A DNA stretch of 10,919 nt from UHGV virus genome UHGV-0088977. One strand, given 5' to 3'. Source of the stretch: a virus. Of the stretch, positions 51 to 8,520 are shown one piece after another (position 1 is the stretch's first letter; every line of letters begins with the position of its first letter). Made by a program: the position numbers and the translations under genes. Below the pieces are notes generated by a model. It was not told the origin of the DNA. It searched no databases and saw only the letters and a list, made by a program, of their open reading frames with translations.

Positions 51-599
51 TTACCGGAGGGGTAAATTATGATTTTGCTTTTCTTCATCATAATTTTTAA
101 TTTCCATCGATAACAAGAAGCTGGGGTTGTTATTTATTTTTTGGGATATTTCTGTAAGGTTAGACCAACAGTTTGTTTCGGATTTTATTATCTTTTCGCA
201 AATAGATGCAAGCGTAGGGTAATCTTCTACGTCTAATGGTCGAATATGCATAACTCTGTTTCTTATTAGAACGAGAGAGTCCAAATCTTTGGTAATGGAT
301 TTTATGAATTTATATATGTGATCGGGAATTTCCTTTCCATTGGAATTTATGATTTGGTAAGTATCTCCAAGGTCAAAATATTCTATTAAATCAATTGATT
401 CTATACCATCCATCACAGTGCCGAGGTCTTTTTCTAGTCTTCTTTTAGCTTTTTCTAAAAGTTCGTTTGGTAGTTTTATTTCTTTATCTTCTGGCTTCAA
501 GATGTAACTTACAACTATTGAACGGAGGTCTTCCTCTAAAGCGCAAAGAAGAGCATAAACTGTCATACGGGTAAGGTTAAATGCCATGAAACTCTCCAT
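51..599 (-). CDS. Hypothetical cargo protein, 182 aa (178 aa if started at the second ATG, 587), with a HEPN-like R-N-x3-H motif (LIRNRVMH); candidate RNase-type abortive-infection/toxin effector
   Basis: Long ORF in very AT-rich DNA, where chance ORFs of this length are unlikely; motif RNRVMH near residues 113-118 fits the HEPN Rx4-6H signature with the typical polar residue after Arg; GGAGAG Shine-Dalgarno lies upstream of the second ATG (MAFNL); sits immediately distal to the integrase. Confidence 0.55.
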   Translation of the reverse strand: MESFMAFNLTRMTVYALLCALEEDLRSIVVSYILKPEDKEIKLPNELLEKAKRRLEKDLGTVMDGIESIDLIEYFDLGDTYQIINSNGKEIPDHIYKFIKSITKDLDSLVLIRNRVMHIRPLDVEDYPTLASICEKIIKSETNCWSNLTEISQKINNNPSFLLSMEIKNYDEEKQNHNLPLR

Positions 600-3868: not shown

Positions 3869-4231
3869 TTAACGACCTGCTGCGCGGAGTTTTCCGTCAG
3901 GTTCACCGGCAAGAGTCAGTAATTGTCCCTGGTCTTCCTGCAGAATAGTCAGGCGACCACCGCGATTGACATACATCGGCGTTTCGGTGGTGTCTTCTTC
4001 GGAAATTTTCCCGCGGTTAGTTGGGCGAACATATGAGAGTTTGTGTTTGATTTTCACACGGTTCTCATCAAACGGTTCGATTTCCAGATTGAGTGAGACC
4101 TTCCCTTTGGTTTTCGTGTTCATCACACCGGAAGCGACTTCACTGAGAACTGCGCCGATTTTGGTTTCAAATACGCCGCCGTCCAGCTCCCCGATAAATG
4201 CCTGCACATCAGTACTGCGTTCGCTAGCCAT
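3869..4231 (-). CDS. yfdP: YfdP-like small protein (about 120 aa; MASERSTDVQAFIGELDGG...)
   Basis: The track ORF runs to 4549, but a strong GAGGAG Shine-Dalgarno sits 8 nt upstream of the ATG at 4231, and the upstream extension crosses the GC-rich island with non-protein-like composition. The resulting 120-aa product matches the yfdP size I recall. Confidence 0.7.
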   Translation of the reverse strand: MASERSTDVQAFIGELDGGVFETKIGAVLSEVASGVMNTKTKGKVSLNLEIEPFDENRVKIKHKLSYVRPTNRGKISEEDTTETPMYVNRGGRLTILQEDQGQLLTLAGEPDGKLRAAGR

Positions 4232-4699
4232 TTTGCTGCTCCTCATCATATCGACCCTGCAAGGCCGATTAGTTTCTCCACAAAACAGAGAAGAACACCT
4301 GCGGTGGCAGCCGCCCGGATGGATTGGGTTATGAGCCCGTCGTCCGGTGATGCTCTTCTCTGTTTTGTAAAAAGGACGGTACCAGCCGGAAGCAAGAGTA
4401 CAAACTGGTACCGCCAAGACTACACACAGCATAAAGTTGTGGTGCCGGGTGCCTCCCGGTGCCTGGCGAAGGTTGCACACCAGGCGGGTGGGTATCCACA
4501 GAAGGTCGACTGTCAGCCTCAACCTTAACCCGCGTGCGCTGAGCCGCATTCACCACAACGCTAAGGATTCTCTCTGGTTGAAAATACTTAGCTGTTATGT
4601 GCCTGCTTTTAGCCACATCAGGCGAGGTGGACCTGGTTATTCCCCAACAACAAGGATTCGGTTAATCTGGTTATCCCCAACAACGCAAAAGGAAAAGAA
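4232..4699. promoter_or_regulatory. GC-rich structured non-coding island between the yfdP-like gene and the divergent 144-aa gene; probable divergent promoter and 5'-UTR region, possible ncRNA
   Basis: No convincing coding frame (the overlapping ORFs translate to P/G/S/R-rich low-complexity peptides); imperfect 17-bp inverted repeat 4281-4297/4351-4367 with a perfect 14-bp core; hairpin CCGGG-TGCCT-CCCGG near 4446-4460; GGTGCC direct repeat; CCTGG...CCAGG stem near 4462-4483. Confidence 0.4.
4633..4684 (+). repeat. Tandem direct repeat CTGGTTAT(T)CCCCAACAAC (copies at 4633-4651 and 4667-4684, 34-bp period), with a degenerate third copy at 4551-4580
   Basis: Seen directly; the second copy ends 15 nt before the ATG of the 144-aa gene and abuts its Shine-Dalgarno (AAAAGGA, 4687-4693). 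Confidence 0.6.
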
Positions 4700-5134
4700 A
4701 TGTCCGGTAATATCTATACGCTGTACAAATCCCACTGTGAAAATGTTGGAAAGTATCGGGGCATTGAAATCAGTGGGGTAGTGTCATCAGTCGAAATAAG
4801 CAAAGTTGAATCAAGGGCAACATTACTTACTCTTCTGGACCTTGTCTTACATGAGCACCGGAAGAAATTCGGCACTCCCTATAATCAGTTGAATGGGAAA
4901 AAAGCTCTGGTTCACCTTATTCTGATGAAGCATCACTGGATGCCAAAACAGATTAATGAGATGAAATTTGATGAACTTCTTCTTTCAATTCAGGATGAAC
5001 TCACGCTTGATAAAATAAGCGTAACCGCCCAGAAATTTTTAGATTATCGAGACTGGAGATCACAAATTCATCACTTTGATGATTTTGACGAAAATGAATG
5101 GGATCCTAATTTGTCTGCACAATATCTAAAGTAA
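4700..5134 (+). CDS. Hypothetical protein, 144 aa, AT-rich orphan (moron-like) gene of unknown function
   Basis: Uninterrupted 144-codon ORF in AT-rich DNA; Shine-Dalgarno AAGGA 6 nt upstream of the ATG; opposite orientation to the flanking leftward operon; plus-strand intrinsic terminator downstream at 5372-5397. No recognisable motif by eye. Confidence 0.7.
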   Translation: MSGNIYTLYKSHCENVGKYRGIEISGVVSSVEISKVESRATLLTLLDLVLHEHRKKFGTPYNQLNGKKALVHLILMKHHWMPKQINEMKFDELLLSIQDELTLDKISVTAQKFLDYRDWRSQIHHFDDFDENEWDPNLSAQYLK

Positions 5135-5312
5135 CATCCTGTGATAAAACCGTGATTTCCTGATCCAGTTTTTTTAAGGAGTCTATTGTTTCCTGTCGAT
5201 AAGACAGCACTTCACGAAGCTGGTTTATAGCTGCCAGCTTCTTTGCCATCCACTCGTAAATTTCCTCATTTGTGTATCCGGGTGCGACGATTTTTGGTTC
5301 TGTTTTGTGCAT
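5106..5312 (-). CDS. Hypothetical small protein, 68 aa (MHKTEPKIVAPGYTNEEIYEWMAKK...), hydrophilic and probably helical
   Basis: GAGGAGG Shine-Dalgarno 6 nt upstream of the ATG at 5312; the track's start at 5327 is a TTG that forms part of this SD; the 3' end overlaps the 3' end of the 144-aa gene by 29 nt in convergent orientation. Confidence 0.55.
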   Translation of the reverse strand: MHKTEPKIVAPGYTNEEIYEWMAKKLAAINQLREVLSYRQETIDSLKKLDQEITVLSQDVTLDIVQTN

Positions 5313-5371
5313 TTCACACCTCCTCAAGTTATCAGTTACTTGTTGATGGGGACCAGATTGTTAAAGAGCTA

Positions 5372-5397
5372 AGCGTCCTGTAGGGCGCTTTTTTGTT
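5372..5397 (+). terminator. Rho-independent terminator (stem AGCGTCC/GGGCGCT, loop TGTA, then a T-tract)
   Basis: 7-bp stem including one G-U pair, followed by TTTTT on the plus strand; the complementary strand would carry a C-A mismatch and a poor U-tract, so it is probably plus-strand specific. Confidence 0.6.
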
Positions 5398-5559
5398 GCT
5401 AACGAATCATCCTGGACTTCATATGCCCCAGGCGGCTACTTCGTGGGCGTCCTGCCTGTTCGTTATCTTTGATATAAAATCTAACTTAACTTAGTTATTA
5501 TGGCAAGAGAAAACACCAAACTTTTCTTAGTTCGGTGCCTTAGTTAGAGAAGAGAGGTC

Positions 5560-6186: not shown

Positions 6187-6283
6187 AGGAGCACCATTTC
6201 TTGAATTGCTAAGTAATCTTAGTTTTTATTGACCAAAGATAGATTTGTAATTAGCATCTAATAAAACTTAGTTTGGAGGGCGT
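6187..6283. promoter_or_regulatory. Divergent repressor/cro promoter-operator region (PRM/PR-like)
   Basis: 97-bp AT-rich spacer between the divergent repressor and cro starts; near-palindromic motifs ATCTTAGTT (6216-6224) and AACTTAGTT (6265-6273) and inverted repeat CTAAGTAATCTTAG (6208-6221); candidate -35 TTGACC at 6229-6234; GGAGGG Shine-Dalgarno before the cro ATG. Confidence 0.6.
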
Positions 6284-6484: not shown

Positions 6485-7073
6485 ATCGATTAACAGAAAC
6501 CACAGAACGATGAGGTTAACCGTGGGTAAGCATCACTGGAAAGTAGAAAAACAGCCTGAGTGGTACGTGAAAGCTGTCAGAAAAACTATCGCAGCGTTGC
6601 CGGGTGGTTACGCTGAAGCAGCTGACTGGCTGGATGTAACAGAAAACGCATTATTTAACCGCCTTCGTGCCGATGGCGATCAGATTTTCCCGCTGGGATG
6701 GGCAATGATTTTGCAACGTGCTGGTGGAACTCACTTCATTGCTGACGCTGTGGCGCAGTCTGCAAATGGCGTCTTTGTGTCTCTTCCTGACGTCGAGGAT
6801 GTGGACAACGCCGATATTAACCAGCGCCTGCTGGAAGTCATTGAACAGATTGGCAGTTATTCCAGACAGATTCGTTCGGCAATCGAAGACGGTGTGGTGG
6901 AACCGCATGAGAAGACAGCAATTAACGACGAGCTGTATCTCTCAATTTCGAAGCTGCAGGAGCATGCAGCACTGGTCTACAAAATCTTTTGCATTTCAGA
7001 AAGTAATGACGCCCGCGAGTGTGCAGCTCCGGGCGCCGTGGCGTGTCGTGACTGTGGAGAAACTAACGCATGA
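6465..7073 (+). CDS. Early regulatory protein, YmfL/YdaT-like by position and size (about 200 aa); start uncertain (6465 or 6477)
   Basis: ORF immediately after and overlapping the cro stop, suggesting translational coupling; no clear Shine-Dalgarno; ATGA overlap with the next gene. Assignment rests on synteny with e14 as I recall it. Confidence 0.6.
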
Positions 7074-7408
7074 ACAGTTTAACAACACACTACCGTCGCT
7101 CGCAACTGATTGCGCTTCCTGTACCGGGTGGAAAAGCGAAGGTGGAGTATTGCTATGCAGTTAATGTACCAGGTGACAGGGAAATTGTAACCCACAGCTT
7201 TGCTGAGTGGGCTGTGGGTGATTTCAACCGGCAGAAGGAGACAGTCCTTTGCGACAAGTTAACCGCTGGTTCAAAGATCACTACGGAGTGCCCGTCAGAG
7301 TCATTCGTTGGGAGCCGGAAACACAACGGGTTATCTACCTCCGCGAAGGCTATGAGCATGAGTGCTTCAGCCCGCTCGAACAGTTTCGTCGTAAATTCAG
7401 GGAAATAG
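7070..7408 (+). CDS. ymfM: YmfM-like protein (112 aa)
   Basis: ATGA stop/start overlap with the preceding gene; length equals that of e14 YmfM as I recall it; sequence identity not verified. Confidence 0.55.
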
Positions 7409-7417
7409 AGGTCGGTC

Positions 7418-7972
7418 ATGAGCACTAAATTAACCGGCTATGTATGGGATGGTTGCGCTGCATCAGGCATGAAATTATCCAGCGTGGCAATTATGGCCCG
7501 CCTGGCTGATTTCAGTAATGACGAAGGTGTGTGCTGGCCATCAATTGAAACCATTGCCCGTCAGATTGGCGCGGGGATGAGTACCGTCAGGACGGCTATC
7601 GCACGGCTGGAAGCAGAAGGCTGGTTAACGCGTAAGGCGCGTCGCCAGGGTACGGGGGCAGGCTGTATTGCGCGTGCTGACTTTGAAGCCCGACAACGGG
7701 CGGCGCGGACGGATGAAACCACCTATGTGGTGCAGGGCTGGCGACAGGGTAACGGTACGCTGTGGCAGCCCAACCAGCGGGTGATTGTCTTTGATCCGGT
7801 CTGTGGTTTCGACAATACCGAACTGCTTGTTTCGGAAGTCACGTTTACTCAGGACCAGAACGGCACCCTGACGGAAATCCGTGTCGGCCCGCCTGATGCT
7901 TATCTGCCTGAACCCGAAGCCCCCGGCGCGCGGAAAAAGAAAAAAGCCAGAGTACAGGAGGACCCGTTCTGA
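7418..7972 (+). CDS. Apparently chimeric ORF (184 aa): N-terminal HTH/replication-initiator-like domain joined to a C-terminal fragment resembling the end of a Mu gp44-type baseplate hub protein; probable deletion-fusion
   Basis: N-terminus (SSVAIMARLADFSNDEGVCWPSIETIARQIGAGMSTVRTAIARLEAEGWL) looks like a phage O/HTH protein; the composition changes around residue 95, and the C-terminus runs straight into the baseplate V gene with TGATG stop/start coupling. Confidence 0.6.
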   Translation: MSTKLTGYVWDGCAASGMKLSSVAIMARLADFSNDEGVCWPSIETIARQIGAGMSTVRTAIARLEAEGWLTRKARRQGTGAGCIARADFEARQRAARTDETTYVVQGWRQGNGTLWQPNQRVIVFDPVCGFDNTELLVSEVTFTQDQNGTLTEIRVGPPDAYLPEPEAPGARKKKKARVQEDPF

Positions 7973-8520
7973 TGAGGACGATTGAAGCCATGCAGCGACA
8001 ACTCCTCGGCCTGATTGGGCGGGCCGTGGTGAAAAGTATCAGTGCCGCCACGAAATGTCAGACCGTGGATGTGTCCCTGATTGCCGGTGAACCCAAAGCC
8101 GGGGTTGAACATCTTGAACCCTACGGTTTTACCGCAAGGGCAAACAGCGGTGCGGAAGCGGTGGTGTTGTTTCCGGATGGCGACCGTTCTCATGCGGTGG
8201 TTGTTACGGTGTCGGACCGGCGCTACCGCCTGAAAGGGCTGCAGACGGGTGAGGTGGCTGTCTATGACGATCAGGGGCAGTCCGTGACGCTGACCCGGGA
8301 GGGGATCGTGGTGGACGGTGCAGGTAAAACGATCACGTTTCGCAATGCACCTGAAGCACGTTTTGAAATGGACCTGGAAGTGACAGGACAGGTGAAAGAC
8401 CTGTGCGACTCCGGCGGCACCACCATGTCAGCGATGCGGCTTGCCTATAACGGGCATCGTCACAGAGAGAACGGTCAGGGCAGTAACACCGACAAACCTG
8501 ATAAAGCGATGGAGGCATGA
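7972..8520 (+). CDS. Baseplate assembly protein V / spike-like (Mu gp45-like), 182 aa
   Basis: Position in the baseplate block; C-terminal NGHRH (HxH) motif as found at the apex of phage spike proteins; overlapping stop/start with flanking genes. Confidence 0.75.
   Translation: MRTIEAMQRQLLGLIGRAVVKSISAATKCQTVDVSLIAGEPKAGVEHLEPYGFTARANSGAEAVVLFPDGDRSHAVVVTVSDRRYRLKGLQTGEVAVYDDQGQSVTLTREGIVVDGAGKTITFRNAPEARFEMDLEVTGQVKDLCDSGGTTMSAMRLAYNGHRHRENGQGSNTDKPDKAMEA

Follow-up and report, generated by a model that had tools for sequence, protein, structure and literature searches.

Ranade and Poteete are said to have described the sas RNA of phage P22, for one gene, in Genes Dev 7:1498 (1993). In reviews, sas is an antisense RNA that shifts the translation of sieB from SieB to Esc (PMC13397905, PMC12197685, PMC7067206), and small-RNA sequencing of P22 infection, dated 2026, places a 127-nt species, P22A-sas, on the minus strand at nt 11,387 to 11,513. 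Here, we analyze a stretch of 10,919 nt from the UHGV virus genome UHGV-0088977 (the window, on whose numbering all positions are given), in which two direct repeats stand before a gene encoding a protein of 144 amino acids (aa). On the strength of its alignment to the P22A-sas RNA, the repeat region is a homolog of the sas/sieB-leader module, placed before a gene that does not encode SieB. The antisense module as such is already known and recurs here with a different motif and a different downstream gene, or cargo; what goes beyond the known case is its breadth as a socket for genes, its existence in long and short forms, and the coevolution of its pair of motifs.

Aligned with the 127-nt P22A-sas RNA, the minus strand of the window from 4704 to 4590 is identical at 82 of 110 aligned positions (75%), with a score of 106, against 47 ± 6 and a maximum of 75 among 500 shuffles. 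As printed, the P22A-sas sequence is the reverse complement of the block, and it extends from the start codon of sieB across both repeats as far as the left hairpin. Homologous blocks lie upstream of sieB in lambda (nt 34,395 to 34,481), P22, the Rac prophage of Escherichia coli K-12, and a Hafnia phage, and the left block of the window is almost identical to those of lambda and P22. As at the sieB leaders of P22, lambda, and Rac, a rightward gene is set within a leftward early region beside the immunity genes; as in P22 sas, the minus strand reads as two G-rich motifs about 34 nt apart plus a terminal hairpin, and the region complements the start codon and ribosome-binding site (RBS) of the gene that follows. 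The window differs from P22 and lambda in its motif, which is CCCCAACAAC instead of ACCCCTACAG, and in its host element, an e14/SfIV-like prophage that has a LexA-like repressor but no recognizable N gene. It differs from P22, further, in its cargo, an all-alpha protein of the ECs1072 family with no relation to SieB and no evident SieB/Esc switch, and in that the minus-strand RNA, which has been sequenced in P22, is for the window a prediction from sequence homology and from a repressor-controlled leftward promoter upstream.

The repeat pair is real and not a product of chance. Read continuously, the sequence across both repeats is GGACCTGGTTATTCCCCAACAACAAGGATTCGGTTAATCTGGTTATCCCCAACAACGCAAAAGGAAAAGAAATG, and a single-T indel is the only difference between the copies, with a period of 34 nt at the start and 33 nt past the indel. 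The pair is the best one-indel tandem direct repeat in the window, with 18 matched nt, whereas 100 dinucleotide-preserving shuffles average 10 and reach at most 14; the longest ungapped run between the copies, 11 nt, is ordinary by itself (shuffle mean 9.3, maximum 13). With only about two copies, the pair goes unreported by Tandem Repeats Finder. An earlier note, made from the sequence alone, had described two copies with a 34-bp period, the last of them ending 15 nt before the ATG, and both are found where it placed them, above all shuffles, with repeat 2 ending at 4684 and the start codon beginning at 4700. The note had further assigned the repeats to a regulatory leader and the 144-aa gene to tight regulation, a view that is probably right in spirit. 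Its RNA-level option, a protein- or RNA-binding leader, lies near the mark, since the block matches the antisense RNA region of P22 sas. Two features had escaped it: the block is a conserved, portable module that is not specific to the 144-aa gene, and a −10-like box lies between the two copies.

The block that holds both repeats is about 100 nt in length (about 4599 to 4699) and nearly invariant, with variable sequence on both flanks. Homologous loci bear out the conservation of the repeats: the upstream ~100 nt are nearly unaltered among homologs of the 144-aa protein that are only 52 to 72% identical, and one such homolog shares 31 identical nt across repeat 1. A search of viral contigs for CCCCAACAACAAGGATTCGG recovered at least 120 loci. 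Among the matches listed, the order GTGCCTG..CAGGC..GGTGG..repeat 1..GGTTAAT..repeat 2 is almost invariant; to the right, a differing open reading frame (ORF) begins 12 to 25 nt past repeat 2, and to the left, the flanks fall into at least 25 sequence classes, most of them resembling structured RNA. A second scan, unbiased as to the repeats because it was anchored on the left block only, yielded 104 unique modules. Calling ORFs downstream of all modules produced 41 clusters, which likely reduce to roughly 30 genuine cargo families, as several singletons look spurious. These families include SieB (PF14163), zinc-ribbon proteins, membrane proteins, and proline-rich mini-ORFs followed by a protein with two transmembrane segments; many have no Pfam or PADLOC match. 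The window's own module type occurs in 1,113 of 5,426 complete E. coli genomes, with no annotation under the module in the E. coli rows inspected. Rfam has no match anywhere in the window at the gathering threshold, and permissive scans return only a chance match over the repeats (Afu_309, 11 bits), plus subthreshold matches to STnc100 and DicF to their left; the sas-type module is without an Rfam family.

Within the module, it is the pair of motifs that varies, and its two members vary together. Exact direct repeats of at least 8 nt with a period of 32 to 36 nt (mostly 33 to 34) are present in 60 of the 104 unique modules, and they sort into five motif families, each the same in both copies: CCCCAACAAC, which is the type of the window; ACCCCTACAG, or type B, which is that of lambda, P22, and the Hafnia phage; TTCCACAGTCAA; CCCCAATGCAA; and CCCCCACAA. 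The Rac pair reads ACCCCTACAG / ACCCTTACAG. The best run between copies averages 10.6 nt within a locus versus 5.3 nt for cross-type pairs, and the two copies thus change together across lineages. Their number never exceeds two in any locus examined, and motif type and downstream cargo assort independently.

A −10-like hexamer lies 5 to 8 nt upstream of repeat 2 in all five types, and in almost every one of the 60 long modules (TATAAT, TAAACT, TAAAAT, GTTAAT, GATAAT, and TATATT, among others), and in a type A variant an insertion yields a perfect TATAAT. From the position of this hexamer, we infer that the cargo mRNA starts at about 4673 to 4675, at or just before repeat 2, with ...AUCCCCAACAAC as its 5′ end; a start there would put repeat 1 at about −33 to −22. 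The module also has a short form, such as that of e14 ymfI in K-12, in which the left block leads into TAT(C/T/G)CT to make an extended −10 box (TGgTATNCT), followed by one C/A-rich motif, a Shine-Dalgarno (SD) sequence, and the ATG; here, the left block itself carries the −35 element and the TG of the extended −10 box. That TAT is missing from long modules. Given its loss and the single unit of short modules, the long form appears to have arisen by tandem duplication of a −10 box, motif, and SD-like sequence, with the upstream promoter since dead. K-12 holds both forms: a short module before e14 ymfI (locus L130, 5400 to 5500), with TGgTATGCT and the single motif GTTCTCACACAG, and a diverged long module with a compensatory left hairpin before sieB of Rac (locus L131, 5060 to 5174). 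We also considered an upstream ORF and rejected it: no ATG, GTG, or TTG follows the first AAGGA, and the only in-frame candidate is a CTG at 4667.

Two hairpins are found in the block. The left block, which hardly varies among more than 200 loci, forms hairpin L, probably the 3′ stem-loop of an antisense RNA. This role is suggested by the RNA-seq species of P22 sas, which ends 16 to 17 nt past the hairpin, and by the Rac sequence, in which GCCCGG/CCGGGC takes the place of GCCTG/CAGGC in a compensatory manner. Hairpin 1 encloses the core of repeat 1 and, in the window, has a folding energy of −7.2 kcal/mol on the minus strand versus −4.0 kcal/mol on the plus strand, where it is weaker because a G-U pair turns into an A-C mismatch. 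Stems of at least 5 bp occur at this site in 79% of 82 unique modules versus 24% of shuffles, and they are built from different sequences (ATCCT/AGGAT, TTCTCGT/GCGAGAA, TTCTTGG/CCAAGAA, ATCCTTAAAAT/GTTTTAAGGAT, and TCCTTCTT/AAGAAGGA). RNAalifold recovers hairpin 1, with compensatory changes in 5 of 13 predicted pairs, all 5 in this hairpin. Its loop is CCCC (GGGG on the minus strand) in several motif types, and its segment has a mean fold z-score of −2.07 on the minus strand versus −1.40 on the plus strand, with the minus strand the more stable in 47 of 56 segments.

We favor, with some reserve, the reading in which the repeats are a duplicated promoter-leader unit under sas-like antisense control of cargo translation. 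In the lysogen, the weak internal promoter at the GTTAAT hexamer would drive rightward transcription of the cargo, giving an mRNA whose unstructured, G-poor 5′ end is repeat 2, while the upstream unit would have lost its −10 box and retained repeat 1 within a small hairpin. Upon induction or infection, a repressor-controlled leftward promoter would transcribe antisense RNA over cargo and module, and processing would leave a sas-like RNA from about 4704 to 4590 with hairpin L as its 3′ stem-loop. This RNA would show the complement of repeat 1 in the loop and 5′ side of hairpin 1, and because repeat 1 equals repeat 2, the loop, together with that side of the stem, would complement the inferred 5′ end of the cargo mRNA. 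Docking of the loop on that end, with pairing then spreading over the SD sequence and the AUG, would silence translation of the cargo, presumably a gene of the exclusion or abortive-infection type, while the phage itself grows lytically. Such docking would account for the need of the copies to coevolve with no protein involved, and for the ability of the motif to diversify into specificity types.

A precedent for such docking exists in IS10, where the 5′ end of the RNA-IN mRNA docks on a stem-loop of the antisense RNA-OUT and the RBS is blocked. The proposed pathway would be alike in that a single-stranded mRNA 5′ end docks first on an antisense loop and next on the 5′ flank of the stem. The sequences are unrelated, however, and, unlike in IS10, the docking loop in the window would be a duplicated, noncognate copy, and the antisense RNA of the module would probably arise by read-through of the early operon without a promoter of its own. 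A search by eye found no conserved minus-strand promoter specific to sas within the module or where the cargo begins. Two candidates were set aside: TTAACC-N18-AATAAC, seen in type A, is not matched in type B, and TTCACA-N17-TATAGA, within the 144-aa ORF, looks unconserved in a second locus (L002).

Several points weigh against antisense control by docking. The complement of repeat 2 that is cognate to the mRNA is already perfectly antisense to it, so that the need for a second, noncognate loop is hypothetical. The mechanism in P22 is a translational switch between SieB and Esc, and the cargo in the window is unrelated to SieB. An N-like antiterminator is not apparent, and the antisense transcript would meet a weak terminator-like site on its path. 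The start site of the cargo mRNA is placed by the −10-like hexamer, and the −35 sequence is poor. The window module's own single-sequence folds are no better than shuffles (z-scores: minus strand, +0.8; plus strand, +1.0), and this variant has lost the T that reinforces the outer stem of hairpin 1 in its relatives. G-U pairs and A-C mismatches number 3 versus 2, which does not discriminate between the strands, and the unique modules are related by descent, such that counts of them overstate independence.

The duplication itself suggests another explanation, which we regard as unlikely: the repeats may be the mere footprint of a duplicated promoter-leader unit, with repeat 1 playing no part in pairing and being kept by its overlap with the −35 and spacer region or by recombination between the copies; transcription would still be driven and ended by the module as in the favored reading. 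The unit of −10 box, motif, and SD-like sequence is indeed visible twice (in P22, unit 1, GAGAAATCGGATAAAC, resembles unit 2, GAGAATCGCCGATGAAC), short modules make do with one unit, and repeat 1 falls at about −33 to −22. A neutral relic, however, should decay, as the upstream −10 box did, whereas five motif types, despite divergence at the positions around the repeats, keep their copies identical over 9 to 13 nt at a fixed period. Gene conversion over tracts of 10 to 13 nt is an implausible way to maintain that identity, and repeat 1 lies within a hairpin whose stems covary.

The earlier note had preferred a DNA-level array, in which the repeats, about three helical turns apart, are binding sites for a regulator of the 144-aa promoter. 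The copies do flank the −10-like box, one over the −35 region and one over the +1 position; the −35 sequence is as poor as those of activator-dependent promoters; and the period is constant at 33 to 34 bp. Such an array nevertheless seems improbable, and the diversity of motifs is what tells against it: a single architecture accommodates five motif types, whatever the downstream gene, which would require five cognate proteins, and a host factor could not fit them all. Lambda, lambda imm434, and P22 carry differing repressors and N proteins, yet records under all three names have the type B motif ACCCCTACAG in common. The putative operators of the window's repressor are a different palindrome, CTAAG-N4-CTTAG, and no candidate regulator tracks motif type in the loci examined, although no systematic test was made.

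We attach still less weight to the idea that a host RNA-binding protein acts on the leader, either CsrA, through two GGA motifs, or Hfq, through ARN repeats, in which case the repeats would merely flank the binding sites. The consensus for CsrA from systematic evolution of ligands by exponential enrichment is RUACARGGAUGU, to which ACAAGGAUUC (4650 to 4659) comes near, and the GGA at 4654 to 4656 is 37 nt from a second in the SD sequence (4691 to 4693); AAC-AAC-AAG and AAA-AGG-AAA-AGA fit the ARN pattern, and one distant relative has a CsrA-family gene beside its module. We drop this explanation because conservation of the upstream GGA does not extend to all motif types: the lambda/P22 type (CGAGAAATCGG) lacks it, as do the CCCCAATGCAA type (AAGAAATT) and type C, even though repeat and architecture persist in them. 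Moreover, an mRNA starting at about 4673 would leave the upstream GGA outside the transcript.

ToxI-type repeats have a period of 34 to 36 nt. A short type III toxin-antitoxin array of this kind, neutralizing the downstream protein, would suit the similar period of 34 nt and the small gene directly downstream in a defense-type prophage slot, but it was correctly dismissed in the earlier note and is almost certainly not what is present here, as there are two copies at most with a promoter-like −10 box between them, neither Pfam, PADLOC, nor the PDB matches the 144-aa protein to the endoRNase toxins of the ToxN/AbiQ type, and the same module stands before roughly 30 or more unrelated genes.

Antisense control by a sas-like RNA would, if true, make the module a marker of self-immune exclusion or abortive-infection genes in the prophages that carry it, and its motif pair would offer a specificity code. 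A broader proposal, which we put forward as a tentative and rather doubtful one, is that the module is a portable socket through which lambdoid and e14/SfIV-like prophages keep dozens of unrelated exclusion or defense genes on in the lysogen and silence them by read-through antisense RNA in lytic growth, with the coevolving motif pair, of at least five types, setting the specificity of pairing. Only a phage of the same motif type would then be able to silence the cargo of a resident prophage, and motif types would act much as loop sequences do in antisense-controlled plasmids, where they define incompatibility groups.

Table 1. Positions of the repeats, the module, and neighboring features in the window
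Feature	Position	Strand	Sequence or remark
DicF-like terminator hairpin of the sRNA	4377-4413	−	Subthreshold Rfam match (permissive scan)
STnc100/PasD-like small RNA (sRNA)	4366-4589	−	Contains the putative third copy; adjoins the module on its left
Putative third copy (copy 0)	4548-4579		ATTCACCACAACGCTAAGGATTCTCTCTGGTT; aligns with repeat 1, spacer, and start of repeat 2
Putative sas-like antisense RNA region	4590-4704	−	Complements the start codon, SD sequence, and both repeats; ends at hairpin L
Left block and hairpin L	4599-4630	−	GCCTG (4601-4605) pairs with CAGGC (4619-4623), then GAGGTGG
Hairpin 1	4632-4655	−	CCU.GUUGUU[GGGG]AAUAAC.AGG; proposed recognition stem-loop of the antisense RNA
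Repeat 1	4633-4651	+	CTGGTTATTCCCCAACAAC; upstream of the −10-like box, core inside hairpin 1
−10-like hexamer	4661-4666	+	GTTAAT; putative cargo promoter, equivalent of PsieB
Repeat 2	4667-4684	+	CTGGTTATCCCCAACAAC
SD sequence of the 144-aa gene	4689-4693	+	AAGGA
Start codon of the 144-aa gene	4700-4702	+	ATG
Cargo gene, 144 aa	4700-5134	+	ECs1072 family; occupies the sieB slot
Weak terminator-like site	5031-5016	−	In the path of the proposed antisense transcript
Terminator-like hairpin and T-run	5371-5390	+	Would end the rightward cargo transcript
pL-like early leftward promoter (predicted)	5506-5478	−	TTGCCA-17-TAGATT
Putative operator	5481-5494		CTAACTTAACTTAG; between the promoter hexamers
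Putative operator	5517-5530		CAAACTTTTCTTAG; flanks the pL-like promoter

An E. coli prophage of the e14/CPS-53/Shigella SfIV type makes up the window, of which positions 4300 to 5400 are 99.9% identical to strain ML35 (NZ_CP025747). The genes intE, xisE, yfdR, yfdQ, and yfdP and the sRNA follow one another on the minus strand, then come the module and the 144-aa gene on the plus strand, and then a 73-aa ORF and the gene for the LexA-like repressor on the minus strand; beyond the repressor lie a cro-like gene, ymfL, and, past a deletion, baseplate genes. This layout is the same as those of lambda (ral, sieB, and N), P22, and Rac. Palindromes of the CTAAG-N4-CTTAG family, to which the two sites at the pL-like promoter belong, recur at 6209 to 6222 and 6258 to 6271, between the repressor and cro-like genes, and the LexA-like repressor probably has its OL and OR operators in these palindromes. 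The pL-like promoter is the likely source of antisense read-through across the module.

At about 7070 to 8000, the early region (ymfL, DUF4222, and a truncated helix-turn-helix gene) is joined straight to baseplate assembly genes, and farther to the right, ML35 carries fragments of YmfQ and of replication protein P; on account of this junction and these fragments, the prophage appears to be deleted, defective, and mosaic. Just past the integrase, a 182-aa ORF (51 to 599, minus strand) matches the PADLOC candidate PDC-M34B (E = 1.2e-10) and may be a defense gene at the prophage edge.

The 144-aa protein has no match in Pfam or PADLOC, a sequence search of the PDB is empty, and PHROGs returns only a family of unknown function. 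Its AlphaFold model is all-alpha and confident (predicted local distance difference test, 83.6; predicted template modeling score, 0.82), and Foldseek finds nothing in the PDB with an E value below 1. The family spans 65 representative clusters at 28 to 53% identity, and prophage Sp4 of O157 Sakai presumably carries ECs1072. Searches of the literature on the sieB promoter, ECs1072, and ymfI found nothing relevant. Distant family members at three loci (L236, L237, and L238) also lie behind modules of the short type: at L236, a CsrA-family gene adjoins the module of the 144-aa relative, and at L238, the relative is in a chromosomal setting (PhoX and a major facilitator superfamily gene) with only a remnant of the module. 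Another cargo, recurrent at loci L024, L008, L077, L081, and L100, consists of two genes, the first a proline-rich mini-ORF of 26 to 29 aa (e.g., MSYDYEERHMPPFKRPEPPPKPDDSD) and the second encoding a protein of about 150 aa with apparently two hydrophobic segments and a weak PADLOC match to a “2TM effector.”

Upstream of the repeat pair, the earlier note had counted a degenerate third copy. The sequence is present, with a local score of 26 that is marginally over background (equalled in 3 of 418 control windows), and it is part of a separate sRNA on the opposite strand, a placement that the note had missed. Because it is unaltered beside the K-12 e14 ymfI module, a module without repeats, it does not behave as a member of an array. 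The sRNA, read from 4589 to 4366, matches Rfam STnc100 (RF02076) over the full length of the model at 43.5 bits, against a gathering threshold of 47 (E = 1e-7). It resembles the prophage sRNA group of STnc100, PasD, KilS, and DicF (Rfam RF02076 and RF00039; bioRxiv 10.64898/2026.05.13.724894; PMC8175672) and lies immediately to the left of the module on the same minus strand, a place that matches that of KilS beside sieB in Rac. Unlike the named members of that group, it falls below the Rfam threshold, and it is an element separate from the module: at other loci, the module persists with unrelated RNAs in the place of this sRNA, and the sRNA does not covary with repeat type. Its counterpart in e14 overlaps the ORF called ymfH, and “ymfH” is given as a predicted Hfq-bound sRNA in a study using RIL-seq (RNA interaction by ligation and sequencing). 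Other ORFs annotated over the sRNA and module are gp34 and gp35 of SfIV, a “frameshifted hypothetical” in ML35, and two in the window (3869 to 4549, minus strand, and 4437 to 4781, plus strand); all of these, like e14 ymfH, are probably not genes.

The left flank as a whole looks like a second hypervariable slot, for minus-strand small RNAs. At other loci (L006, L024, L032, L078, L093, L099, L100, and others), the 50 to 250 nt next to the module hold diverse structured sequences, including long hairpins within CACAAC...GTTGTG, motifs resembling the T-arm of tRNA (GGTTCGAATCC), and, in Rac, KilS. The left flank of L099, judged by eye, reads as a near-complete tRNA-Arg(UCU).

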